Program-made: the position numbers and the translations under genes
The notes under the pieces: model-generated
What the model saw: only the letters and a program-made list of their open reading frames with translations
Told to the model about the DNA's origin: nothing
Database searches by the model: none
In this document: positions 3,628 to 16,235 of the stretch, piece after piece
How the letters are laid out: every line of letters begins with the position of its first letter
Position numbering within the stretch: the first letter of the stretch is position 1
Origin: Chondromyces crocatus
GTDB taxonomy: Bacteria; Myxococcota_A; Polyangia; Polyangiales; Polyangiaceae
Direction: 5' to 3'
DNA length: 32,000 nt
Assembly: GCF_001189295.1 (NCBI RefSeq)
Contig: NZ_CP012159.1
Coordinates: 3,204,973 to 3,236,972, forward strand

Positions 3628-4173
3628 CTACCAACCGGTCCTGCCCCTGCGTCGGAGCGACTTGGTGAGACGCTGACGAACTTCCCGGAGGCGCTCGCCG
3701 ACGACGCCGACGGAGATGCCCAGCTTTGCTGCGACCTCGGGGCGAGTCATTCCGACGGCGATGAGGGCGGCAACGTCGCGCTGAAGCGGAGGGTGTTCTG
3801 CAAGGGATTCGAGAAGCAGACGCGCCTGCATCTGCTCGTCGACGGGGAAGGAGACAGGTTGATCGGCAAAGTCGGCAGCGAGACCTGAGGGGACTTCGCG
3901 GCGAAGGTACGCGGCTGAGCGGTAGTGAGAGGCCTGCCGCCAGGCGATGCCGTGCATCCAGCGGCGCAGAGCGAGGTCAACATCGCCACCATGTTCGACG
4001 ACAAAGACATCGGAGGCGACACCGCGCCAAGCGGCAAAGAGGATGTCCTGAGCCGCATCGTCGATGCGCTGAGGAGCGACCCCATAGCGATGCAAGACGC
4101 TGCGGATGGTGGGCATGACCTGCAGGAGCATGGCGATCGGAACGCGGCGGGGGGATTTGATGGGAGTGCTCAA
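3628..4173 (-). CDS. ECF-type sigma-70 family factor (phage-borne)
   Basis: Region-2-like DILFAAWRGV...RRWMHGIAWRQASHYR. Region-4 HTH LQRDVAALIAVGMTRPEVAAKLGISVGVVGERLREVRQRL. Its start overlaps the upstream gene's stop by 4 nt. Confidence 0.7.
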   Translation of the reverse strand: MSTPIKSPRRVPIAMLLQVMPTIRSVLHRYGVAPQRIDDAAQDILFAAWRGVASDVFVVEHGGDVDLALRRWMHGIAWRQASHYRSAAYLRREVPSGLAADFADQPVSFPVDEQMQARLLLESLAEHPPLQRDVAALIAVGMTRPEVAAKLGISVGVVGERLREVRQRLTKSLRRRGRTGW

Positions 4174-4880
4174 AGGGACGCCTCCCCACCAGTGAGGACG
4201 GCCAGATCTTCGCGGCCGAGATCGAGGTGATAGGAGACGAGAGCGACAGAGACGTGTAGCTCGGCGCCGATCTCCTCGAGCGAATGACCGGAAGCGTGGG
4301 CGAGAAGCGCAACGCGCTCAAAGCGATTCAGGCGACGGACTACCGCGAGAAGCTCGCGAGCCTCCAGGTAAGGCTCGGGATGAAGCAGGTAGCCAGGGAG
4401 CAGATCGCGAGGATCGAGGGGCGCCAGCTCAGTCAGGCGAGACCATGCGAGGTCCTGCCAGTGAGTCGCCTTGTGAAAGGCAATACGCTTGATCCAGCCG
4501 CGGAGCGCGAGCGAAGGGGAGGCCGCCGGGTCGGGCCTGAACTCCCCCGAGGAGATGCGGAGCCAGGCAGCGAACAGGACATCCTGGAGCAGATCGGCGC
4601 GATCGGGAGGGCGAACGCCATAGCGCGCCAGCACGCGACGGATGGCGCGGCCATGCCCGAGGAGCTCCGCAGCGGAAGGAAAGACAGCGGGGAAGGAAGG
4701 GCGAGAGGGAGAAGAGGTGGAAGGTGAGGGAGAAGACGGATCGATTCCTTGGCCCTTCTCTGGGCGCGGGGATACACAAAACACGTCGGACCTCGTGCGA
4801 TCGGGGTTCGGCCACGCAGCCCGGGGTGCTCCAACACCCGCGGGCTGCACTCGATTTGGGGCGCAAGCGCCCCAGCCCAA
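4170..4880 (-). CDS. ECF-type sigma-70 family factor, paralogue with a Ser/Pro-rich N-terminal extension (start uncertain)
   Basis: LLQDVLFAAWLRI...LRGWIKRIAFHKATHWQD is region-2-like. RFERVALLAHASGHSLEEIGAELHVSVALVSYHLDLGREDL is region-4-like. No in-frame ATG/GTG/TTG lies between the S/P-rich tract and region 2, so the start is at 4880 or a nearby GTG. Confidence 0.6.
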   Translation of the reverse strand: MGWGACAPNRVQPAGVGAPRAAWPNPDRTRSDVFCVSPRPEKGQGIDPSSPSPSTSSPSRPSFPAVFPSAAELLGHGRAIRRVLARYGVRPPDRADLLQDVLFAAWLRISSGEFRPDPAASPSLALRGWIKRIAFHKATHWQDLAWSRLTELAPLDPRDLLPGYLLHPEPYLEARELLAVVRRLNRFERVALLAHASGHSLEEIGAELHVSVALVSYHLDLGREDLAVLTGGEASL

Positions 4881-4957
4881 AACCGCCCCGGCCCCCCGGA
4901 AGGGGAGCCGAGACGGCGGCTAAACGCGAAACACGAGACGTGCCAATAAGGGCAGTA

Positions 4958-5737
4958 TCAGGCCTGGCCGGCCTGGTCGTCTTCGTGAGCCAAAATGATC
5001 AGGAGCGTGGAGCGCCCAGAGCTATCCGCGCCCTGCACAAGAACAAAGGGCACGGCGTCCTCGGGGTCATAGGCGCGCCGCTGATCATCACTGAGGACGC
5101 AGAGAACAAGATGGCGCTCCTGCGCCGGCTCAGCGCGGAGGATCCTGCCGAAATAAGCCAGAAGGTTGAACAGGCGCATCTTGACCTCGCTGCCCTGAGG
5201 CTGTTCGCCGGGAAGGGGAGCGACGCAGACCTGCCATGCCGCAAGCGATACGGTGACAGAGGGGCCGACACCAGCCGCGTGGGCGAGCGCGGTAACATCG
5301 ACGAACGGCTCCCCGGGCTGGGCGGAGGGGAAGGGCAAATCCTCTGTCCTGATAACTGGCTCAGCCGCCAGTATGATTGCGATAAACGGCCTGCCGTCCG
5401 ACAAGACGCCGCTGAACAACTTCAGCTCGACCGGCTCGGGCACGCCGGAGCCCACGATGACACGGAGGAGAAAGGACACCCCCTTCCCGTCAGAAGCGGA
5501 GGTCATAGCGGCCCGGCCTGCGACGAGAAGAGCCCGGAGGCGACGCGCCTCGTCACGACCAGCCTTGTCGCCGGCATCCGTCAGAGCGACGCAGCGGCGC
5601 CACGCGGCAGCGCTGAGGAGGACGGGGGCGGTAAAGCCCACCTCCGAGGCGGGGCCAGAAACATTAACGAGCGCGCCCGGCTCGGTAGCATGCTGACAAG
5701 AAGAGGGGGGAACAGCACTGCCAGACCGTACGTTCAT
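4958..5737 (-). CDS. Hypothetical protein with two tandem copies of the domain found once in 5947-6480
   Basis: Copy 1: VNVSGPASEVGFTAPVLLSAAAWRRCV...ELKLFSGVLSDGRPFIAIILAAE. Copy 2: VDVTALAHAAGVGPSVTVSLAAWQVCV...VLVQGADSSGRSTLLIILAHEDD. The codon bias is typical of high-G+C coding sequence. Confidence 0.6.
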   Translation of the reverse strand: MNVRSGSAVPPSSCQHATEPGALVNVSGPASEVGFTAPVLLSAAAWRRCVALTDAGDKAGRDEARRLRALLVAGRAAMTSASDGKGVSFLLRVIVGSGVPEPVELKLFSGVLSDGRPFIAIILAAEPVIRTEDLPFPSAQPGEPFVDVTALAHAAGVGPSVTVSLAAWQVCVAPLPGEQPQGSEVKMRLFNLLAYFGRILRAEPAQERHLVLCVLSDDQRRAYDPEDAVPFVLVQGADSSGRSTLLIILAHEDDQAGQA

Positions 5738-5946
5738 AGCACTCCTAAAACTCCCGACAGCCCGGAACCAAGGCAGAGAGGAGCCGAAAGAGGGTACGGG
5801 CGCGAGGCCGAATAGCCCTGCACCCGACCCAATACACGCCCCAGGAAGCCCGGGCAGAAGCGCCCATAGAAGCCCCCCGAGGCGAGGAGTGCATAATCAC
5901 GAGGCGTGCCAATGAGGCGCTCAACGAGCGAGACAGGTGCCGAGGA

Positions 5947-6480
5947 TCAATCCTCCTCGGCGAACATGATGGTGATCTCTGGCTCGCCGTTGTCTCCGGG
6001 CTCGTATATCAGCTTCAGCTCGGTTCGCTCCGCATCGGGGGAATCCGACACGACGTAGAGGTGCAGCCAAACCGCCATGGCGTCAGGCTCTCGAACGATG
6101 GCAGCGTAGGCCGCCGAGAGTAGCTCCGCGAGCCTACTTTTTTCGGTAAGCCCTGCCGCCTCGGCGGCTTCCGTCAGCTCGACGCAACGCATCCACACGT
6201 TCTCTGCAAGGACGACAGGGAGGGTGAAGCCTACCATTTTGGCATGCGCGGTCACTTCAACCAGTTCACCATCTTCAATGGCTTCGAGGCGGGAATACAC
6301 ATAGGCGCATCTGATAGATCCTCCCTTTGCTGGCCTCCCGAGACAGGTCGACTGCCGGCGATCCTGGGGCCGCAGCGTGGGAAGGCCTGCTTTGGCGACT
6401 GGGCAAGCGCGCGGCGACTGCACCAACTCGGCCCGAACTTGCCTGGTGCTCTCGGTTAGCTTATTGAATGAGTCATCCAT
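5947..6480 (-). CDS. Hypothetical protein; the single-copy domain resembles a plasmid/phage family I recall as DUF6573-like
   Basis: ATG at 6480 with GGAG 9 nt upstream. Motifs: YSRLEAIEDGELVEVTAHAKMVGFTLPVVLAENVWMRCVELTE...ELKLIYEPGDNGEPEITIMFAEED. The family name is from memory and unverified. Confidence 0.6.
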   Translation of the reverse strand: MDDSFNKLTESTRQVRAELVQSPRACPVAKAGLPTLRPQDRRQSTCLGRPAKGGSIRCAYVYSRLEAIEDGELVEVTAHAKMVGFTLPVVLAENVWMRCVELTEAAEAAGLTEKSRLAELLSAAYAAIVREPDAMAVWLHLYVVSDSPDAERTELKLIYEPGDNGEPEITIMFAEED

Positions 6481-6596
6481 AGTCAATTTCTCCACCGCCA
6501 GTGCTCTCCGCTATGAAGAGAGTCAGAGACGGCTCATGCACATCAAGCGACATGCCATAGAGCCGTCGTTATGGAATCAGTGGAACTGTGAGGGAT

Positions 6597-7352
6597 TCAG
6601 ATGCCGAGGAAATCGCGAAGCTCGTCAGTCATCCAGGGGGCGGTCTGGAGATAGTTGCGGGTGGGATCCATCGCGGGGATGTCGTTCTTGTCCGCCTTAC
6701 CGCGATGAGCGCGGAGCACGAGGGAGTGCAGCTTGGCGTCATGACCGATGAGAAAGCGGCGCCGGGTGTCAACGGTGGCGCCGCAGCCGCACAAGCACAG
6801 GCCGGCCGGATTGACGGCAGGAGGGGCGACCTTGGCCTTGGCGGGTTTGGAAGGCTTCCCCGCCCGCCTCTCCCCGGATCCACGGGCCGTAGACTTACCG
6901 GCCCTACCACCCTTGGGCGCAGCGGCGTCCCCAAAGACGACCTCGACAGGGGGCGCAGGATCGGTAGGAGGCGGCTCACTGTAGACAACCTCCTCGTCAA
7001 CGGCGGCGGAAACCGTGGCAGACTCCGAGGCCGAGGGCTCGGTGGTGGGCACCGAGGCCGAAGTGGGCTCAGGAGCCTCGCACTGCTCGGCAGGACCGAC
7101 ATGGGCGAGTGCAGCGACCACCGCCTCAACAACAGGGTCCCTGGCGACGCCCTCGTCCAGTGCAGGAGCAGAGGGCTGCACACGGAGCCGATAAACGCCG
7201 TTGGTCAGCGAGAGGACCCGCCGGCTCACCAGCTGGTTAGCGGCGCGCGTATTGAGGCCATACACCTTCAGGTGAGTGGCCGCGACAGACTCGCGAACCG
7301 AAAGGAACTCGATGATGCGCGTTTCATTCTCAGTCATTGCGTTGGTGTTCAT
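6597..7352 (-). CDS. wHTH-like N-terminus, acidic/Pro-rich linker, C-terminal CxCGCG...GHDAK motif protein
   Basis: 251-aa ORF. N-terminus ETRIIEFLSVRESVAATHLKVYGLNTRAANQLVSRRVL. Lys-rich stretch GKPSKPAKAKV. C-terminus CLCGCGATVDTRRRFLIGHDAKLHSLVL. Confidence 0.6.
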   Translation of the reverse strand: MNTNAMTENETRIIEFLSVRESVAATHLKVYGLNTRAANQLVSRRVLSLTNGVYRLRVQPSAPALDEGVARDPVVEAVVAALAHVGPAEQCEAPEPTSASVPTTEPSASESATVSAAVDEEVVYSEPPPTDPAPPVEVVFGDAAAPKGGRAGKSTARGSGERRAGKPSKPAKAKVAPPAVNPAGLCLCGCGATVDTRRRFLIGHDAKLHSLVLRAHRGKADKNDIPAMDPTRNYLQTAPWMTDELRDFLGI

Positions 7353-8209: not shown

Positions 8210-9286
8210 CTAGGCGCTGTGCTGCTGGCCGCTGGTCTCGCGCGCCTGGCTATCCCGGCTGTCAAGGAGCCGGACGGCATCCCGCCGAATGTCTGGGGAG
8301 AGGTGGGCATAGCGCATGGTCATTTCAATGGTGGCGTGGCCGAGCAGCTCCTGGACCGCCTTGATAGGAACGCCGCGCATGACGAGATGCGAGGCGAAGG
8401 TGTGTCGAAGTGTGTGCCAGCCGATACGACGTAGCTCGGCGCGCTGACAGGCGCGGCGCAAAGGATGCTTGCACTCATTACGGGTCAGAAGGCGGCCACC
8501 GTCCGCCGGGAAGACGAACTCCCTAGCAAAGCGAGAAGGGAGAGCCCGCAAGACGGCGATCGCTTCGTCCGAAAGCGGGACCTCACGGCTTTTCTTATTT
8601 TTTGGCGTCCCGATGATCCCACGGGCGACCGCGCGACGCACCTTGAGCAGGCCAGAGACAAGATCGATGTCATCCCAGCGCAGCGCCAGCAGCTCGCCCT
8701 GCCGCAAACCGGTGCGGAGCGCGAGCAGGACCATGGGCCGCCATTCGGGATCCGCCCCGCGGAGCAGGCGCTCCGCTTCCTCGAAAGTGAGAAAATCGAA
8801 CTCCGCCTCAGGAACGGGGAGCAACTTGAACGGTGGCAGACCGTGAAGGCGACCCCACTCCTTGGCCACTGTAAACACTTTGCGAAGCACCGTAAGCTGG
8901 TTATTGACAGTTTTGGGGGAGAGCCCTGCGCGGAGCTGGTTGGCCTTGAAGCGTTCGACGTGCTGAGGACCGATGGAATCAAGGCGCTGAGCACCAAAGA
9001 ACGGGCTCAAATGGAGGCGCAAAATTGATTCCTTTGTCTCCACCTCGGAGGGCTTGTTATTGGTGTAGGCATAGGTCTCAAGAAACTCCTTAGCAAAATC
9101 GGTGAAGAGAGGCGGCCGACCGACCTGCCGAGCGTATTGCTGGAGCTTGGCACGCTCCTGCTGCTCGAGGATAACAGCCTCGTTCCTGGTGCGAACGTCG
9201 ACGGATTTCCGCAGACGAACCCGCTCACCCCCACGCCAAAGAACGACGTCGATTTGCCACGTACCACCACGTTTGCGCACGGTCAT
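8210..9286 (-). CDS. int: Tyrosine recombinase / phage integrase
   Basis: 358 aa. SAM-like N-domain HVERFKANQLRAGLSPKTVNNQLTVLRKVF. Catalytic signature ALRTGLRQGELLAL (R), HTLRHTFAS (H-x-x-R), LLGHATIEMTMRYAHL (H...Y). Confidence 0.92.
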   Translation of the reverse strand: MTVRKRGGTWQIDVVLWRGGERVRLRKSVDVRTRNEAVILEQQERAKLQQYARQVGRPPLFTDFAKEFLETYAYTNNKPSEVETKESILRLHLSPFFGAQRLDSIGPQHVERFKANQLRAGLSPKTVNNQLTVLRKVFTVAKEWGRLHGLPPFKLLPVPEAEFDFLTFEEAERLLRGADPEWRPMVLLALRTGLRQGELLALRWDDIDLVSGLLKVRRAVARGIIGTPKNKKSREVPLSDEAIAVLRALPSRFAREFVFPADGGRLLTRNECKHPLRRACQRAELRRIGWHTLRHTFASHLVMRGVPIKAVQELLGHATIEMTMRYAHLSPDIRRDAVRLLDSRDSQARETSGQQHSA

Positions 9287-9297
9287 GAACGCTTACC

Positions 9298-9561
9298 TCA
9301 GCGAGGATCAGGGGCACCTACTGCCCACTGAATCAGCGTCGGGCGATGCAAGCGCAATGCCCGTCCGAAGTGACGGACACCCGGAATCGTCCCCTCACGA
9401 ATCATGGCGTAGAGTGTCTTTCTACCCAACCGCAGGTAGAGGCGCGCCTCCTCCACCGTCCAGAAGTCCGGAGCATCTCCCACATGCTGCTCTGGCGTTC
9501 GGGATGACTCGGGTCGAGAGCGATAGCCTTGTCGCACCCCTGTTCGATTCATACGCACCAC
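9298..9561 (-). CDS. xis: Excisionase-family / MerR-like HTH protein (start uncertain)
   Basis: WTVEEARLYLRLGRKTLYAMIREGTIPGVRHFGRALRLHRPTLIQW matches the Xis-type HTH pattern. It ends 11 nt upstream of the int start. An alternative GTG start lies at 9483. Confidence 0.65.
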   Translation of the reverse strand: MVRMNRTGVRQGYRSRPESSRTPEQHVGDAPDFWTVEEARLYLRLGRKTLYAMIREGTIPGVRHFGRALRLHRPTLIQWAVGAPDPR

Positions 9562-10011: not shown

Positions 10012-10320
10012 TTGACCCAACCCGTCTCGTTTAAGCCGATCACGCTCGACCCCCGCACAGCGACGCCGACGAGCCTGAGTCGATCCTCGGTGGATGAACT
10101 TCTGCTTCTGGCGATATCAGGCGGAGAAGATCCGACGATCGCAGGAGGGATCGAGGCGACGGCGCGTGAACTCGAACTGCTCTATGAGCTGTGCAACAAC
10201 CGAGGGGAACTGTGGATGAGCAGCCTTCTCAACCAGCTCCAGCAGCGTCTACGCGTGCTGGCCGAGGTCTCCCGGCGGCGGGAACGTGAAGCACCTGCAT
10301 CTACGCAGTCCGCCGCTTGA
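10012..10320 (+). CDS. Hypothetical protein
   Basis: TTG at 10012 is preceded by GGAGG (10001-10005). Product of 102 aa with a helical C-terminus. Its 3' end converges on and overlaps the CI-like gene by 20 nt. Confidence 0.4.
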   Translation: MTQPVSFKPITLDPRTATPTSLSRSSVDELLLLAISGGEDPTIAGGIEATARELELLYELCNNRGELWMSSLLNQLQQRLRVLAEVSRRREREAPASTQSAA

Positions 10321-10807
10321 GCTGGATCCTGCCGAGGGCGGCCTCGATCTCGTCCAGCATCTCGGCCCACTGGGGGGGCTGAAGTTCCTCGGCATCAGGT
10401 AGCGTGACCATCGCCCTTGCGGCTGCCACCGTGGGCATCGACCACTTGTGCTGGTGGTAGGCGAGCGCCGCCTCCAGGGCGAGCGCCCGGGAGCGCTGCG
10501 TAGCCGTGCCCGAAAGCGATGGGGGAGGGGGGACCGAGGACGGGTCATCGAGGTTGCCGCGGCCCGTCGCGAGCCATTCGTAGTTGATGCGTAGGGCGTC
10601 GGCGATGCGCCTCATCAGCTCGGGCGACAGTTTCAGCCGCTCCCCTTTGAGGATCCTGGAAGCGTAGCCTCGCGCCAGGCGCGCCTCCTCCTCCAGCGCC
10701 AGCCGAGTCATGTTGCGCAGTTCCAGCGCGTGGAGCAGTCGATCGGCGAGCGAGTCGAGTGATTTGGGATCCCGAGACGCTGCGTCCTGTGTGTGCTTGG
10801 CCATCAT
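10301..10807 (-). CDS. XRE/CI-type HTH repressor
   Basis: LHALELRNMTRLALEEEARLARGYASRILKGERLKLSPELMRRIADALRINYEWLATGRG is an XRE-family HTH. It is divergent from a cro-like ORF across an operator-rich spacer. Confidence 0.8.
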   Translation of the reverse strand: MMAKHTQDAASRDPKSLDSLADRLLHALELRNMTRLALEEEARLARGYASRILKGERLKLSPELMRRIADALRINYEWLATGRGNLDDPSSVPPPPSLSGTATQRSRALALEAALAYHQHKWSMPTVAAARAMVTLPDAEELQPPQWAEMLDEIEAALGRIQLKRRTA

Positions 10808-10847
10808 TTGTGGGCTCAGTAACGGCGAGCGATGTGCAGTAGCCTAT

Positions 10848-10958
10848 CTGTCAGCATCCCCAGGCACAAGAGGATGCTGTCAGCGTCATCGGCTACCGAC
10901 TGGGGGTCTGTCAGTCTGACAGTTTCCAGTTGACAGACACGGGGGCCGATTCTAGCTT
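10848..10958. promoter_or_regulatory. Operator/promoter cluster of the CI/Cro switch
   Basis: CTGTCAG at 10848-10854, 10877-10883 and 10908-10914. Perfect palindrome CTGTCAG-T-CTGACAG at 10908-10922. TTGACAG at 10930-10936. 8-bp inverted repeat cagcatcc/ggatgctg at 10852-10859 / 10872-10879. Candidate sigma-70 promoter: TTGACA (10930-10935), 17-nt spacer, TAGCTT (10953-10958). Confidence 0.55.
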
Positions 10959-10964
10959 CCGGTC

Positions 10965-11105
10965 ATGATCATCAAGCTCCTCGGCACCTTGCCGGCCGAG
11001 GGCAATCGCCGCCTCTGGGCTATGACCCAGAAGGATGTGGCCGGTGCCCTCGGCTTTTCTTCAACCCCAACGACCGCGGCGAACGCGGTGGAGCGATATT
11101 CATGA
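10965..11105 (+). CDS. Small Cro-like HTH protein (46 aa; not in the ORF track because it is under 60 aa)
   Basis: MIIKLLGTLPAEGNRRLWAMTQKDVAGALGFSSTPTTAANAVERYS*. The MTQKDVAGALGFS segment is HTH-like. Its TGA (11103-11105) overlaps the next gene's ATG (11102), an ATGA overlap. The ATG lies 6 nt after the putative -10, so the transcript may be leaderless. Confidence 0.5.
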   Translation: MIIKLLGTLPAEGNRRLWAMTQKDVAGALGFSSTPTTAANAVERYS

Positions 11106-11707
11106 GCATCGCTCTCGACCGAGCTAAGCGCGCTTTGCAGCGCCGCGGAATGGTGCTGGTTTGCGATCTCGACGGCACCCTAGCCACCGACGTGGCGCGC
11201 CGTCACCTGAGGCCTCGCGCAAACAGCGCATGCCTCGATGGTGTCGCGCCAGAGCAGATCGAGCGCTACATGGATCCGAAGCTGGTAGCGCTCGATGAGC
11301 CGGTTTCGGGGGCTGCAGAACTGCTGGGCAGCCTCGTCGCTTCGCCGGGAGCACCGCGTCTACTCCTGGTGACCGCTCGCTGGAACTCTCTGTGGCGTGT
11401 CACGACGCAATGGCTTGGACGGCATTACCCGAACGTACGGCCGTTCCTCCTCATGAGGAAGCGCTCGGACACGCGGCCCTCGGTCGACGTGAAGCTCGAT
11501 CTCGTCCGCACCTACGGTGGAGCCGCCCAGGGAGGAGTCTGGCTCGACGATGACCCTCGAATGTTGCTTGCGGCCGAACGTGCAGGGTTTGTCGCTCTGA
11601 AAGCGCCGGAAGTCTTCGCGGCGACGGAGGCGCCTACGCCCATCGGCAACGTGGTCCCGGCGCGGCGATGCGCCTGGTGTCATCCCGAGCTTCCTGAATC
11701 GGCCTGA
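11102..11707 (+). CDS. HAD-superfamily phosphatase (nucleotidase-like)
   Basis: Motif I VCDLDGTLA (DxDxT). Motif II LLLVTAR. Motif III K...WLDDDP. 201 aa with no obvious cap-domain clue to the substrate. Confidence 0.75.
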   Translation: MSIALDRAKRALQRRGMVLVCDLDGTLATDVARRHLRPRANSACLDGVAPEQIERYMDPKLVALDEPVSGAAELLGSLVASPGAPRLLLVTARWNSLWRVTTQWLGRHYPNVRPFLLMRKRSDTRPSVDVKLDLVRTYGGAAQGGVWLDDDPRMLLAAERAGFVALKAPEVFAATEAPTPIGNVVPARRCAWCHPELPESA

Positions 11708-11709
11708 CC

Positions 11710-12831
11710 ATGCTCGACAGCAAAGTGAATGTCCTCCTGGACGCCCAATGGGGCAGTTCCGGGAAGGGGAAGTTCTGTCTCTGGCTGGCCGAGCGCCACG
11801 GTGTGACCTTTGCCTCAGCGAGCAACGCGCCGAACGCTGGTCATACGATCGCGCTTCAGGGTGAGCGCTGGGTCTTCAAATGCCTTCCCAGCGCCTCGCT
11901 CGCTCCTTCCGTGAGTACGGTTCTGCTCACGGGAGCGAGTGTGTTTGACGCCGAGCAACTCAGGACCGAGAGTGGCTGGACGCGCGCCGAGGTGCTGATC
12001 CACGAGCGCGCCGTTGTGCTCCAGCCTCGTCACCGGGAGCGCGAGCAAGGGGCAATGAGCCTGCTCGCGATTGCCTCGACCCAGCAAGGCTCGGCCGCTG
12101 CGGCGATCGACAAGATGCTGCGAGAGCCGAACGTGATCGCCGCAACGCACTGGCACGAGCTCGGTCGAGCCCACGTGACCCCGGCGACCGAGTGCAGAAC
12201 GGCCCTGCTCCGGGCGCTGGAGGAGGGCGGTACGGCGCTGCACGAGGTCTCCCAAGGGTACGCGCTGAGCATCGATCACGGCTCACAGTTTCCCCACTGC
12301 ACGAGCCGAAATTGCACCTCGGCGCGCGCTCTCGACGACCTCGGGGTGAGCCCCCGGCTTCTGGGCGACGTCTACCTCAACGTCCGACCCTATCCCATTC
12401 GGGTAGGCAACATCGTCAAGGGCAGCGAGGTGATTGGCTTCTCCGGTGGTTTCTACCCTGACGCACGGGAAACCACCTGGGAAACAGTCGGCCGACTTGC
12501 CGGCATGCCAGAGGACGAGATCAGCAAGCTGCACGAGGCGGAACTCACCACGGTGACGCGGCGGCTCCGGCGGGTTTGCACGTTCAGTCGAATGGGCTTC
12601 GTCGACGCCTGCCGTGCGAATGGTGCAACCAAGATCATCCTCAACTTCGCGCAGTACCTCGACTGGAGCGTCTATCAGCAGCGCGGCGAGGTGAGCATCG
12701 CGGACTTGCCCGAGCGCCTCCGGGACTTTGTCTGCCTGCTTGAGCGCCTGTCCGGATCCCCCGTGGTCGCCATCGGGACCGGTCCCGACCACGACGACGT
12801 GCTTATCCCCTGGAGACGAAATCTCTCATGA
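11710..12831 (+). CDS. purZ: Adenylosuccinate-synthetase (PurA) superfamily protein with a PurZ-like signature
   Basis: 373 aa. LLDAQWGSSGKGKF (PurA has GTQWGDEGKGK). NAPNAGHT (PurA GGHNAGHT). ASTQQGSAAAAIDKM (PurA GTTGRGIGPAYEDK). EVSQGYALSIDHGSQFPHCTSRNCT (PurA [24 protein letters not shown]). YPIRVGN...SGGFYPDARETTW. ELTTVTRRLRRV (PurA GATTGRRRR). Superfamily membership is confident. The PurZ subtype is from remembered signatures. Confidence 0.7.
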   Translation: MLDSKVNVLLDAQWGSSGKGKFCLWLAERHGVTFASASNAPNAGHTIALQGERWVFKCLPSASLAPSVSTVLLTGASVFDAEQLRTESGWTRAEVLIHERAVVLQPRHREREQGAMSLLAIASTQQGSAAAAIDKMLREPNVIAATHWHELGRAHVTPATECRTALLRALEEGGTALHEVSQGYALSIDHGSQFPHCTSRNCTSARALDDLGVSPRLLGDVYLNVRPYPIRVGNIVKGSEVIGFSGGFYPDARETTWETVGRLAGMPEDEISKLHEAELTTVTRRLRRVCTFSRMGFVDACRANGATKIILNFAQYLDWSVYQQRGEVSIADLPERLRDFVCLLERLSGSPVVAIGTGPDHDDVLIPWRRNLS

Positions 12832-13592
12832 ATTCCATATCCCAAACGGAGCTTTTCGCAGACTTCACCGCCATTCAGCACAAGGCAGGTGAGACCTTTC
12901 GCGCCAAAAATGCAGCATACGGTTGCGCGAATATTGCCGAGAGCGGGGAGCAAGGCGTCTTTCTTCGTATGAGTGACAAATTTGCTCGGCTCCGTCACGA
13001 GTCCATCCCGGGCGAGTCGGTTGAGGATGCGCTCCTCGATCTGATGAACTATGCCGCGATGCTGCTGCTTCTCCGGCAGGGCAAGTGGCCGGGCCACAAG
13101 CGCGACGTCGATTGCCCCGACCTACTCGACGCCCTTCAGGTACGCGAACAGTTGTGCGGCAGCCTCGCAATGCCCCAGGTCGAGGGCGACGTCGGCTACG
13201 ATCTCCGCGCCTCAGAGGACGTTCTTCTGCCCGCCCGTCTGGGTCCTCCCGCTTATATCTCGACGGGCATCCGCATCAAGGCTCCCGAGGGAGTCTGGAC
13301 GCGCATCGTGGGGCGCTCCAGCACGGCCAGCCGCGGCGTGCTTGTGGCCGAGGGCATCATCGATAACGGCTACACGGGAGAGCTGTTTGTTGCCTGCTTC
13401 AACCTCTCTGGTCACCCGCTCGCCATCAAGGCAGGGGAGCGGATCGCCCAGCTCGTGTTCTGCCCGATCATCACGCCGAAACTCACCTACGTGGAGGAGC
13501 TTCCGGCCACGGGCAGGGGAGGACGAGGCTTCGGCTCTACGGGCGAAGCCGTAGGGTCGTCGAGCGAGCAGGGCAGGAGCCTCGCCTCATGA
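12828..13592 (+). CDS. dut: Fusion protein: N-terminal all-alpha NTP-pyrophosphohydrolase-like (DUF1599/MazG-superfamily-like) domain plus C-terminal trimeric dUTPase
   Basis: The C-terminal half carries all five dUTPase motifs: VGYDLRA, GRSS, GIIDNGYTGE, ERIAQL and RGGRGFGSTG. The N-terminal ~95 aa reads FRAKNAAYG...GEQGVFLRMSDKFARLRHE...SVEDALLDLMNYAAMLLLL. The ATG overlaps the purZ-like stop (ATGA). Confidence 0.8.
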   Translation: MNSISQTELFADFTAIQHKAGETFRAKNAAYGCANIAESGEQGVFLRMSDKFARLRHESIPGESVEDALLDLMNYAAMLLLLRQGKWPGHKRDVDCPDLLDALQVREQLCGSLAMPQVEGDVGYDLRASEDVLLPARLGPPAYISTGIRIKAPEGVWTRIVGRSSTASRGVLVAEGIIDNGYTGELFVACFNLSGHPLAIKAGERIAQLVFCPIITPKLTYVEELPATGRGGRGFGSTGEAVGSSSEQGRSLAS

Positions 13593-13849
13593 ACCGCAGC
13601 GCAGCCCTTGCCGAACTTCGCCAGCTCGGTGAGGCGCTTCCGGATCGCGCGCTGGGAACTGCGCTTTACATCCTCCGGCGGCTCGCCTCCGGGGAGCGAT
13701 GCCAGCCAGCACGGGAGGGAATCGAGACCGCAGTTGAGTACGCGGCGCATCAATGCGACCTCGCGCTCGATCGAATCGGCCAGTTCCTTGAGTACGGGCC
13801 GCAAGCGGCCATCAGCCCCGCCCGCATCTCCGCGCCGCGCATTGCGTAG
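13589..13849 (+). CDS. Hypothetical protein
   Basis: Its ATG overlaps the previous stop (ATGA at 13589-13592). 86 aa, helical. It competes with an antisense ORF (13487-13978, minus). The plus frame is preferred because of the coupling and operon context. Confidence 0.4.
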   Translation: MNRSAALAELRQLGEALPDRALGTALYILRRLASGERCQPAREGIETAVEYAAHQCDLALDRIGQFLEYGPQAAISPARISAPRIA

Positions 13850-13896
13850 CGTACCGCACGGGCTTCTTAAACACCGGCGAGGGCCCCGCCTTGGGC

Positions 13897-13922
13897 GCTG
13901 GGATGCGCGCGCGTATCCCAGC
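13897..13922. other. 8-bp-stem palindrome in the only sizeable gap of the rightward operon
   Basis: gctgggat-gcgcgcgcgt-atcccagc. It lies in the 170-nt gap between 13849 and 14020, upstream of the HTH pair and the RepA-like module. Confidence 0.4.
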
Positions 13923-14019
13923 ACCCGGCAGAACTCCTCAGCCAATAGCAATGAAACACGCGCCCCCATGCTGCTCACCAGCAGCGCTCGGGAGCAGAGA
14001 CGATTTCGCCGACTTACCT

Positions 14020-14244
14020 ATGAAAACCGAAGGTCAACTTCTACTCGGCAACCTCGCGCGTGCGCACACCGAATCCTGGATCGCCCGCCGATGTCACGTC
14101 AGCCAGCCTGTTGTGAGCCGCTGGCTTCGGGGAAGCCGAAAGCCGAATTATGAGAACCGCCGAAGCCTGCTGCTGAAATTCGACATCGCCATGGAGGCGT
14201 GGGACCGCCCTGGCTGCGAAGCGCAGCACCAGGAGGTGGCATGA
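14020..14244 (+). CDS. Small HTH protein, paralogue 1
   Basis: MKTEGQLLLGNLARAHTESWIARRCHVSQPVVSRWLRGSRKPNYENRRSLLLKFDIAMEAWD... It is collinear with the next ORF. Confidence 0.6.
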   Translation: MKTEGQLLLGNLARAHTESWIARRCHVSQPVVSRWLRGSRKPNYENRRSLLLKFDIAMEAWDRPGCEAQHQEVA

Positions 14245-14447
14245 TGACGCAGGGACAGCGGCAACTGCTTCGCCTCGCGCACAAGTTTTCCGAGGTGCGC
14301 ATCGCGCGAAAGTGTGGGGTCGGTCAGTCGACCATCAGCATGTGGATCTCGGGCAGGCGCAAGCCCAACTACGAAAGCAGAAAGACCCTGCTCGAACTCT
14401 ACGACATCCCGATGGCTGCGTGGGACCTGCCCCTGGAGGACAAGTGA
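14241..14447 (+). CDS. Small HTH protein, paralogue 2
   Basis: AGGAGG at 14231-14236. MMTQGQRQLLRLAHKFSEVRIARKCGVGQSTISMWISGRRKPNYESRKTLLELYDIPMAAWD. Its start overlaps paralogue 1's stop. Confidence 0.65.
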   Translation: MMTQGQRQLLRLAHKFSEVRIARKCGVGQSTISMWISGRRKPNYESRKTLLELYDIPMAAWDLPLEDK

Positions 14448-15517
14448 GCTTCACCGAAGGGCAGTACCTCGCGGAGGAGCGCGCGGCTCTGCAGGGCGAG
14501 ACATCGCCCGCCCCCTTCCATTGGATCGGCACGCGTACGATCTTCGCGCGCCTCCCTCCTACCCGCTGGCTGGTGCCCGCCCTTCAGCTCTGCCAGGGCA
14601 GGCCGGCCATGCTCGCGGCCTACGGTTCGACGGGCAAGACGCTCGCGGCTCAATCCCTTGCGCTCGCAGTTTCTGCGCGGCGGCGCGTCTGGAGCGCGTT
14701 CGACTGCCCAGCCGCCCTCACCGTGCGCCACGTCGACCACGAACAGGGGCGGCACGCCACCCTCAAGCGCTACCAGCGGCTCGCTCTCGGCATGGATCTC
14801 ACTCCCGAGGACATCGACGGACGCTTGCAGGTCTCTGTTTATCCTTCGGTCTATCTCAACCTTGCTGACGCCGAGGATGCCTACGCCAAAGCCTGTGAAG
14901 GGGTAGACCTCGTGATCATCGACGCGCTCAAGGGCGCCACGCCTGGTGTCGATGAGAACGATTCGAAGATCCGCCACTGCATCGACACGCTGAGCCGCGT
15001 CTCTGACAGGACGGGAACCACCTTCCTGATCATCCATCACTCGGGCAAACCGAAAGAGAGCCATGCCGATGCTCGCACGGTGCCGCGCGGCTCCAGCGCC
15101 ATCTTCGACGCCTGCGGCTCAGTGCTCGTCATGCTCGGCGAGAAGGGAAAGCCAAAGCTGGTCCGACACGAGAAGGTCGCCGCGGAAGCCGAGGGAGGCG
15201 CGCTGGAGGACTTCTACCTCGTCATCGAGGATGTTTGTCGCGGCGCCGATCCGCGTGCGGGTGTCCGCGTCGTCCACAAAACGCTCGGAGAGACCGAGCC
15301 CAGCGACAGCGGTGCCGAAGCCATGGCCGAGCGGTTTGAGGCATTGAAACGGCACATTCTCGACGTCGTCCGCCGACACGGCAGCATCGCTAGTAAGAAC
15401 GGCATCTGTGAGCGCGTACCAGGGACGCGAACCACGAAGCTCAGCGCCATCCAAGAACTGCTCGACGAGCGAAGGCTCGTGGAAGTGAACGGGAGCTTTC
15501 GCGTTACCGAGCGCTGA
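14444..15517 (+). CDS. RecA-fold P-loop ATPase of the RepA/AAA_25 type (putative replicative helicase/initiator) with a C-terminal wHTH
   Basis: GTG at 14444 overlaps the previous TGA, with GGAGGA at 14435. Walker A AAYGSTGKTL. Walker B DLVIIDAL. FLIIHHSGKP. C-terminus HILDVVRRHGSIASKNGICERV...ELLDERRLVEV. Confidence 0.75.
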   Translation: MSFTEGQYLAEERAALQGETSPAPFHWIGTRTIFARLPPTRWLVPALQLCQGRPAMLAAYGSTGKTLAAQSLALAVSARRRVWSAFDCPAALTVRHVDHEQGRHATLKRYQRLALGMDLTPEDIDGRLQVSVYPSVYLNLADAEDAYAKACEGVDLVIIDALKGATPGVDENDSKIRHCIDTLSRVSDRTGTTFLIIHHSGKPKESHADARTVPRGSSAIFDACGSVLVMLGEKGKPKLVRHEKVAAEAEGGALEDFYLVIEDVCRGADPRAGVRVVHKTLGETEPSDSGAEAMAERFEALKRHILDVVRRHGSIASKNGICERVPGTRTTKLSAIQELLDERRLVEVNGSFRVTER

Positions 15518-15800
15518 AGCAGAGCGCAAAAGACTCCACGGCGCGCGAGCACGAGAGCCTTGTCCATTCCGGAAGGGAGCCAGCACCCCGCCCCGTCTAC
15601 GGGCGGCAAGGTATTCGTATCGGCCTAGCAGACTGGGCCGCTATATCCCTGGCACACCCCTTAAAGAAATTCCGGCAAGGGGACCTCGGGTGTCGTCACG
15701 ACCCTACGAACCCAGCCGCACCCGCCGGCCTGGGTGCGTGGCGACGGACACACGTGCCCGACAACCAAGCGACCTTGAGAGTCCCCGCGTGCTGGCGTCG

Positions 15801-15826
15801 TAACTCACCGCCAGAACGGTGAGTTA
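15801..15826. terminator. Perfect 10-bp-stem hairpin between the RepA-like gene and the ssrA 3' end (possible bidirectional terminator)
   Basis: taactcaccg-ccagaa-cggtgagtta. There is no U-tract on either strand, so the terminator function is uncertain. Confidence 0.4.
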
Positions 15827-15890
15827 TGCCCCCACGAAATTTATCGGGTCACAATCAGGGCACAAAAGATAAAAAACCACGAGCAAAACA

Positions 15891-16235
<345 letters not shown>

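Follow-up and report, generated by a model that had tools for sequence, protein, structure and literature searches.

The canonical Z-cluster of phages that carry 2-aminoadenine (Z) in place of adenine combines PurZ with DatZ and MazZ, and often with DpoZ. A second arrangement is found in PurZ0 phages such as Ghobes and Wayne, which have neither DatZ nor MazZ (Poubanne et al., NAR 2026, PMC12884076). In these phages the Dut-fold enzyme DutZ hydrolyses dATP, dGTP and dUTP and is often fused N-terminally to DmtZ, an NDT-like dAMP hydrolase/transferase, and some of them also carry a small pyrophosphatase of the DUF5664 family (PMC12884076); a 2025 preprint gives the same picture for the Wayne-like clade (bioRxiv 10.1101/2025.10.22.683976). 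Phage S-2L has only a non-selective PrimPol, and adenine is excluded by DatZ (bioRxiv 10.1101/2025.10.22.683976). The three S-2L genes datZ, mazZ and purZ are reported to be enough by themselves for the replacement of A with Z in bacterial DNA (PMC8342488), and the summary in PMC8515928 states that DatZ also turns dADP and dAMP into dA. Here, we analysed a 32,000-nt stretch of Chondromyces crocatus DNA (contig NZ_CP012159.1, positions 3,204,973 to 3,236,972 of the forward strand; hereafter, the window). This locus is the prophage of a temperate phage, located at ssrA, and its early operon encodes a HAD phosphatase, a PurZ-type enzyme and a fusion of a helical domain with a dUTPase (hereafter, the trio). 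We estimate a probability of about 55% that the trio is a nucleotide-metabolism module for making Z nucleotides when this temperate myxophage enters the lytic cycle.

The three genes are read from the forward strand and are tightly packed. The HAD gene (11102-11707, 201 aa) is separated by a 2-nt gap from the PurZ-like gene (11710-12831, 373 aa), which shares a 4-nt ATGA overlap with the fusion gene (12828-13592, 254 aa). The same 4-nt ATGA overlap joins the HAD gene to the preceding open reading frame (ORF) at 10965-11105 (+), the first of the rightward early operon and called cro-like from its position, and couples the fusion gene to a conserved 86-aa ORF at 13589-13849 (+). The first-pass annotation had described three packed genes at the head of the early operon, directly after the cro-like ORF, and had assigned them as HAD, PurZ-like and all-alpha::dUTPase; the coordinates, the overlaps and the gap were all recovered, and the assignments held in Pfam, PHROG, PDB and AlphaFold comparisons. 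The PHROG calls on the trio included a match to phrog_1211 at 1.8e-54.

The best PDB matches of the middle protein were the PurZ enzymes of phiVC8 (6FM1, 2e-42) and S-2L (7ODX, 4.3e-34), with PurA at 6e-24 or weaker; it also matched Pfam Adenylsucc_synt (4.6e-32), and the PurZ model NF038379 was its top family in NCBIfam. A record of 100% identity to it is annotated 'adenylosuccinate synthetase'. Replacement of Asp13 by Ser has been used as the criterion for PurZ, and PurZ enzymes with this replacement were linked to Z synthesis in every tested case (PMC12884076; PMC8515928). The window protein has GSSGKG where Escherichia coli PurA has GDEGKG, and Ser was present at position 13 in all 89 aligned phage and prophage homologues, Asp being kept in E. 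coli PurA only. In addition, the TKLD guanine motif of PurA is changed to LNFAQY and TTGRRRR to TTVTRRLRR in the window protein; phiVC8 and S-2L have the same changes, with the common forms LNFxxY and TTVT(K/R)xxRR, and the variants shared with these two phages cover nucleotide-, inosine monophosphate- and aspartate-binding motifs. These family signatures agree with the PurZ-like assignment made in the first pass.

The window PurZ was 30-39% identical to deposited phage PurZ and PurZ0 proteins (33-39% to canonical PurZ and about 30% to the PurZ0 of Ghobes). In a crude, distance-based neighbour-joining tree of 90 sequences, built without bootstrap and with E. coli PurA as the single outgroup, it grouped with PurZ and PurZ0, apart from E. 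coli PurA, in a third clade beside the other two. The basal members of this clade bear the trio, and the derived members lie on viral contigs of jumbo-phage size, the largest of them 436 kb. No member of the third clade was found in 50,697 deposited phage records, in which the best match was 38% identical. The derived branch (IMG/VR loci L009-L057) also showed a neighbourhood of its own. Ser13 is invariant in it, and its members have no DatZ, MazZ, HAD or Dut partners except for one weak DatZ-like match in L031. An NDT-like gene lies 1.3-2.7 kb upstream in 12 loci (Pfam Nuc_deoxyrib_tr, 25.4 bits, sub-threshold), ThyX lies 2-4 kb downstream in 15 loci, and several conserved neighbours match no known family.

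The third gene encodes two domains. The C-terminal part (13137-13592, +) holds a trimeric dUTPase-fold domain and a disordered tail; residues ~104-240 make up the whole of a trimeric dUTPase, and none of the five motifs is missing, RGxxGFGSTG included. It scored 102.4 bits (2.1e-29) against Pfam dUTPase (PF00692), for which the cut-off is 22, and matched PDB 3CA9 at 3.9e-25; the PDB profile search with the fusion alignment was dominated by dUTPase columns. A 100% identical record is annotated 'dUTP diphosphatase'. The first-pass annotation had proposed that a dUTPase fold could stand in for DatZ by an undescribed route. This idea was right in spirit, but DutZ has already been described and tested (PMC12884076). 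The window domain is 38% identical to the DutZ of Ghobes (gp55) and 45-48% identical to ordinary stand-alone dUTPases, and it was probably recruited independently. We also tried to read purine specificity from the Dut motifs and abandoned the attempt; motif III is canonical in both DutZ and the window domain.

The N-terminal part of the fusion (12828-13112, +) is all-helical, with three long helices over residues 1 to ~95 in the AlphaFold model (predicted local distance difference test score 90). In a BFVD fold search with Foldseek, its top matches were all phage proteins of 'nucleotide modification associated domain 1' (Nmad1), with probability 1.0, template modelling (TM) scores of 0.6-0.81 and E values of 1.5e-3 or weaker. 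The corresponding Pfam family, DUF1599 (PF07659; cut-off 25), scored 14.5-23 bits in four of five orthologues and did not match the window copy. Like phage Nmad1/DUF1599 proteins, the domain has a predicted three-helix fold and the pattern YG...R..DK..R...D...D..NY; unlike them, it is fused to a dUTPase, is linked to PurZ and stays below the Pfam threshold. Residues G43, R47, K51, R54, D67, D71 and Y75 are invariant and E63 is nearly so, a set that would suit a phosphate- and metal-binding site. When used alone as a homologue query, the helical domain (110 aa) gave one weak match, and the full fusion was used instead. The literature searched for DUF1599/Nmad1 gave no biochemical function. As a separate observation, an Nmad1-like domain forms the C-terminal part of a 239-aa protein with no dUTPase on a jumbo-phage contig (L040:3989-4708), 6 kb upstream of a PurZ-like gene; this domain can thus accompany PurZ without a dUTPase as well.

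The first protein of the trio matched phrog_415 HAD (3.8e-18), and its HAD motifs (D22-x-D24-x-T26, S/T followed by R93, K131 and D149-D151) are invariant across eight lineages. It scored 19.3 bits against Pfam HAD_PNKP (PF25109), below the cut-off of 27.6; distant HAD relatives linked to it by phmmer scored 34-104 bits, and some of these have a P-loop kinase domain. Judged by these profile matches, the HAD protein is a divergent relative of the phosphatase domain of polynucleotide kinase/phosphatase (PNKP). Its nearest relatives in cultured phages are 23-30% identical, consist of the HAD domain only and are annotated polynucleotide kinase/phosphatase; several are in T1-like phages, e.g. Jk06 and SRT8, and we know of no PurZ-bearing phage among the HAD matches listed. 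The window protein thus shares the HAD fold and the DxDxT nucleophile motif with T4-type PNKP and the T1-like proteins. In contrast to T4-type PNKP, it has no kinase domain, its Pfam match is sub-threshold, about 65 residues lie between its motifs I and II, and its partners are PurZ and Dut, not RNA-repair genes. The stretch between motifs I and II may form a cap suited to small-molecule substrates. A distant HAD relative, P0343 (247 aa), had a sub-threshold C-terminal match to DUF6378 (21.8 bits) and may be another PNKP-type HAD fused to a small helical domain.

We then examined how often the trio recurs. Relatives were found by alignment query, as locus scans with single proteins recovered close relatives only. 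HAD, PurZ and Nmad1::Dut occurred together in eight loci: the window, Chondromyces apiculatus (L001), Sorangium So ce1036 (L002), a pair of metagenome contigs (L003/L004), an IMG/VR contig (L007) and three distant viral contigs, whose PurZ proteins are 49% (L023), 39% (L051) and 39% (L059) identical to that of the window. The survey of neighbourhoods around homologous purZ genes outlined in the first pass thus returned the same trio. In L059 the gene order is rearranged, with the HAD and fusion genes on the strand opposite PurZ. The trio partners were absent from the other ~75 PurZ loci examined, at least 25 of which bear DatZ, MazZ and PolA. A search of 1.84 billion representatives at E<=1e-3 gave 148 clusters of the HAD family; because the family is this rare, its recurrent pairing with PurZ is not due to chance. 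The ratio of nonsynonymous to synonymous substitution rates (Ka/Ks) between the window and three relatives was 0.18-0.24 for HAD, 0.13-0.16 for PurZ and 0.22-0.31 for the 86-aa ORF, and ranged over 0.13-0.27 for the trio and 0.13-0.31 for all four genes. The HAD, PurZ, fusion and 86-aa ORF genes are therefore under purifying selection.

This linkage bears on a reading in which the three proteins are only loosely coupled. PurZ would make Z precursors, the fusion would be an ordinary dUTPase with a regulatory or other helical appendage, HAD would be a PNKP-type 3'-phosphatase, and exclusion of A would be incomplete or left to other or host factors. The five canonical dUTPase motifs and the lack of special affinity to DutZ agree with such an arrangement, as do the relationship of HAD to PNKP phosphatase domains, some with a kinase domain, and the annotation of the T1-like HAD-only homologues. 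However, the rare HAD and Nmad1::Dut proteins stay with PurZ through deep divergence and gene-order rearrangement and are missing from the remaining PurZ loci, and the genes are translationally coupled. We therefore consider loose coupling improbable.

The partners of the canonical Z-cluster were sought with profiles built from 27 DatZ, 18 MazZ and 23 PolA sequences at a threshold of E<=1. No ORF of at least 50 aa in the 32-kb window matched any of them, in line with the earlier statement that DatZ and DpoZ are absent, and these profiles found nothing in any trio-bearing locus. Queries with Ghobes gp51 and gp52 for the NDT-like DmtZ gave nothing significant in the window or the other trio loci (best E=0.011, in L051). 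Furthermore, no datZ, mazZ or dpoZ was found in L002 and L003 when these were read from integrase to portal; they carry recombination genes, HNH and ERCC4 genes and, in L003, an AAA_25 replication gene, with no polymerase. The neighbourhoods of L023, L051 and L059 hold RecT, PD-(D/E)XK, AAA_24 and DnaT-like genes, and none of the large ORFs scanned around them encodes a polymerase. In the window, an AAA_25 RepA/helicase-like gene (14312-15517, +; Pfam AAA_25 3.5e-25, PHROG primase/helicase families) was the sole replication gene found, again with no polymerase.

PurB is the enzyme for the step following PurZ. In two of the distant loci a PurB-like lyase gene lies directly beside the HAD gene (L051:8377-9498, +; L059:895-2157, -). 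The top NCBIfam model for both was TIGR00928 purB, at 233 bits (L051) and 184 bits (L059), below the equivalog cut-off. The adjacent PurB-like lyase therefore fits a two-step purine amination route. The literature searched for PurZ together with adenylosuccinate lyase held no report of a phage PurB beside PurZ.

These observations also bear on another reading, in which the module rewires nucleotide pools during induction or superinfection and leaves the genome unchanged. It might, for instance, aid phage replication or starve competitors, and packaged DNA would contain A or little Z. Pool rewiring would suit a temperate element that carries a cI/cro switch but neither DatZ nor a selective polymerase. 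It would also agree with the canonical Dut domain and with the occurrence of HAD phosphatases and Nmad1 domains in phages not known for Z. Against this, PurZ with Asp13 replaced by Ser is tied to Z synthesis in every tested case (PMC12884076; PMC8515928), and the S-2L PurZ/DatZ/MazZ triad is reported to put Z into bacterial DNA by itself (PMC8342488). In addition, the conserved pairing with a PurB-like lyase points to purine nucleotide synthesis and not to degradation alone, and no trio gene matches a known defence family; PADLOC returned no match to known anti-phage defence families. Pool rewiring is thus rather unlikely, although we give it some weight.

Compared with canonical Z-clusters (phiVC8, S-2L and SH-Ab 15497-type, with MazZ/DUF550), the window is alike in that PurZ carries the Asp13-to-Ser replacement and the same nucleotide-binding motif variants, and in that the genes are clustered and early, with a presumed logic of making dZTP, supplying dGMP and removing dATP. 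It differs in having no HD-domain DatZ, no MazZ/DUF550 and no PolA-type DpoZ, in the placement of its PurZ in a separate clade, and in belonging to a temperate phage with a helicase-type replication gene only. With the PurZ0 cluster it shares the absence of DatZ and MazZ, a trimeric Dut-fold enzyme that adjoins PurZ, the N-terminal fusion of Dut to a second nucleotide-related domain, and an extra enzyme that could dispose of dAMP. In contrast to that cluster, the fused domain is helical and Nmad1/DUF1599-like, whereas DmtZ is alpha/beta and NDT-like, a HAD phosphatase stands in the place of an N-glycosidase/transferase as extra enzyme, the Dut domain is no closer to DutZ than to generic dUTPases, PurZ falls outside the PurZ0 clade, and there is no DpoZ.

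We propose the following pathway for Z nucleotide synthesis, in which the substrates of all the enzymes, and Z in the virion DNA, are predicted; what is observed is the gene content, the family signatures, the recurrence of the trio and the purifying selection. On induction, the rightward early operon would be transcribed first, from the cro-side promoter. The PurZ-type enzyme would join dGMP and aspartate into a succinylated intermediate, as its family signature suggests, and an adenylosuccinate lyase would free dZMP; this would be the host PurB in C. crocatus and the phage PurB-like enzyme in L051 and L059. Host kinases would then convert dZMP to dZTP. The fusion protein would act as a deoxynucleoside triphosphate (dNTP) pyrophosphatase that clears dATP and dUTP and supplies dGMP, a role filled by DutZ and DUF5664 in the PurZ0 phages. 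The HAD phosphatase would convert dAMP to dA and so block the host from rebuilding dATP, the job of DatZ or DmtZ elsewhere. Finally, the host replisome, recruited by the AAA_25 protein, would incorporate the dominant purine of the pool with no phage polymerase involved. The missing polymerase is no obstacle in principle, because the S-2L PrimPol is non-selective and the S-2L triad alone is reported to suffice. The PurZ0 phages offer a precedent for the trio: pyrophosphatases of the Dut fold, and small helical ones, take over from DatZ and MazZ there, and a dAMP-destroying enzyme is often fused to Dut (PMC12884076).

Several points weigh against this pathway. The window PurZ scored 194 bits against NF038379, below the curated cut-off of 300, and its clade lies apart from both characterised clades, so its substrate could differ; Z in phages of the third clade is a prediction. 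Characterised HAD proteins of the PNKP lineage remove nucleic-acid 3' phosphates, not the 5' phosphate of dAMP. The Dut domain, canonical and with no special kinship to DutZ, may be a plain dUTPase. Relatives of the helical domain also occur in many phages not known for modified purines, and comparison of this domain with PDB folds gave nothing significant (best E 3; MazG DR2231 at E 6.5). The first-pass annotation had suggested that the all-alpha domain supplies the MazZ role, and this we rejected: the hhalign probability was 0.3% for the MazZ family of S-2L and 2.5% for the p26 family of phiVC8, with 59% for the positive control, and Pfam showed no DUF550, DUF5664 or MazG match, so that no MazZ, DUF550 or DUF5664 identity for the domain and no homology to MazZ/MazG was detectable. 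Lastly, SSB, recombinase, HNH and ERCC4 genes are present in the Sorangium and metagenome relatives but not in the C. crocatus element, which also has a duplicated terL fragment (2081-2227) and may be partly decayed.

Taken further, decay would make the element a defective C. crocatus prophage in which the module is out of use. The missing recombination, HNH and ERCC4 genes and the terL duplication are what such a relic might show, and no att repeat was found within the window. However, the reading frames are intact and the Ka/Ks values against the three relatives stay low (0.13-0.31), the integrase, excisionase, repressor and replication genes are intact, and so are the starts of terS and terL at the window edge. 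We regard a relic as very unlikely.

The setting of the locus is that of an integrated phage. A tyrosine integrase (8210-9286, -; Pfam Phage_integrase 5.9e-37) is paired with an excisionase-like helix-turn-helix (HTH) gene (9298-9561, -), and one PHROG scan assigned phrog_66 and phrog_10045 to the integrase-excisionase pair. On the other side lies the tmRNA gene ssrA (15890-16235, -; Rfam RF00023, 126 bits, with ARAGORN in agreement), whose 3' end abuts and faces the element and is therefore the probable attachment site; no second copy of the tmRNA 3' end was found within the 32-kb window. The G+C content at third codon positions rises from ~0.75 inside the element to 0.85-0.9 farther right of the tmRNA. 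ARAGORN also called a permuted 'tmRNA*' (15506-15983, -), which overlaps the genuine tmRNA at its 3' end and reaches ~385 nt into the element; Rfam recognises one tmRNA only, and the permuted call is probably an artefact of the shared acceptor and T-arm. In Sorangium So ce1036 (L002:2862-4890), a short integrase (284 aa) is adjoined by a DDE_Tnp_1 transposase, which suggests an insertion sequence at the integrase end of that prophage.

At the left edge of the window, two reverse-strand genes matched the late genes of L003 in tblastn: one is terS-like (337-891, matched over 329-907; 43% identity), and the other is terL, of which the first 60 codons are present (3-182; 75% identity). The blastn comparison agreed. 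Since these late-gene homologues reach the edge, the prophage very probably extends beyond the window. A ~7.7-kb satellite-like island between the integrase and the tmRNA had been considered and was dropped, because the terS-like and terL starts at the left edge are homologous to late genes of L002, L003 and L007. In those three loci the late genes come after the replication module and share its strand, and the C. crocatus prophage is therefore rearranged relative to them. The duplicated terL fragment repeats 49 codons of the terL start as a separate copy on the reverse strand, 2 kb inward from the first. Between the late genes and the integrase (3628-7352) lies cargo with an ECF-sigma-like gene (3628-4173; weak Sigma70 r2/r4 matches), DUF6573 paralogues (4958-5737 and 5947-6495) and several ORFs with no assigned function, one of them 251 aa long. 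C. apiculatus likewise has sigma-like genes to the left of its integrase, and its counterpart region also bears a TIR_2 protein; DUF6573 genes are present on that side of the integrase in C. apiculatus, in Sorangium and in the L003 contig.

The early region is set off by a cI-like HTH repressor gene (10301-10807, -; Pfam HTH_3 6.8e-06), conserved in L001-L003, and by a divergent regulatory region of 157 bp (10808-10964) with putative operators. CTGTCAG was read three times in this intergenic sequence, at ~10848, ~10877 and ~10908; the third copy forms part of the perfect palindrome CTGTCAGTCTGACAG, and TTGACAG occurs at ~10930. The repeats are probable operators that overlap the rightward promoter. 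The 46-aa cro-like ORF had no family match in Pfam or PHROG; L002 and L003 have longer ORFs with a weak HTH signal in its place. Its cro-like role is assigned because it lies opposite the cI-like repressor, because of the intergenic CTGTCAG repeats and because of these weak-HTH ORFs in L002 and L003. Downstream of the trio, the 86-aa ORF is found at the same position in L001, L002, L003/L004 and L007, and it had no family match in Pfam, PHROG or NCBIfam. Between it and the AAA_25 gene lie two small HTH genes (13891-14244, +, 117 aa; 14199-14447, +, 82 aa), with Pfam HTH_3 reported for the block of the HTH pair and AAA_25. They are adjacent, overlapping and apparent paralogues, and close to their 3' ends is a direct repeat of 26 nt with 85% identity between its copies (14181-14206 and 14402-14427). 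The interval that they occupy holds HNH and ERCC4 genes in relatives.

The PurZ-based theme itself is known; the novelty seems to lie in the accessory enzymes (HAD and Nmad1::Dut) and in their occurrence in a temperate phage that encodes no polymerase. Among cases of complete base replacement, Z-DNA phages are understood best, and work of 2026 shows that their lineages differ in the helpers around one PurZ core. The locus extends this picture of functional convergence by a third helper set and a third PurZ clade, and for two orphan phage families, Nmad1/DUF1599 and the HAD-only 'PNKP-like' proteins, it suggests functions that can be put to the test. A further question, one that the known Z phages have not addressed, is how adenine would be excluded, and how integration and repression would work, in a temperate phage reliant on the polymerase of its host. 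A bolder proposal, which we make tentatively and hold to be possible but doubtful, is that temperate myxophages and a wider uncultured group make Z genomes while lacking both a dedicated polymerase and the known adenine-excluders, by means of a previously unassigned pair: a PNKP-lineage HAD phosphatase as dAMP 5'-nucleotidase and an Nmad1/DUF1599::dUTPase fusion as purine dNTP pyrophosphatase. The host is cultivable and Sorangium relatives are kept in strain collections, which makes the prediction of Z directly checkable. If the bolder proposal is true, the widespread Nmad1 domain would gain its first biochemical function and Z-DNA a third accessory solution, and a Z-genome phage could lysogenise its host, with integrase, repressor and host replisome all working on Z-DNA.

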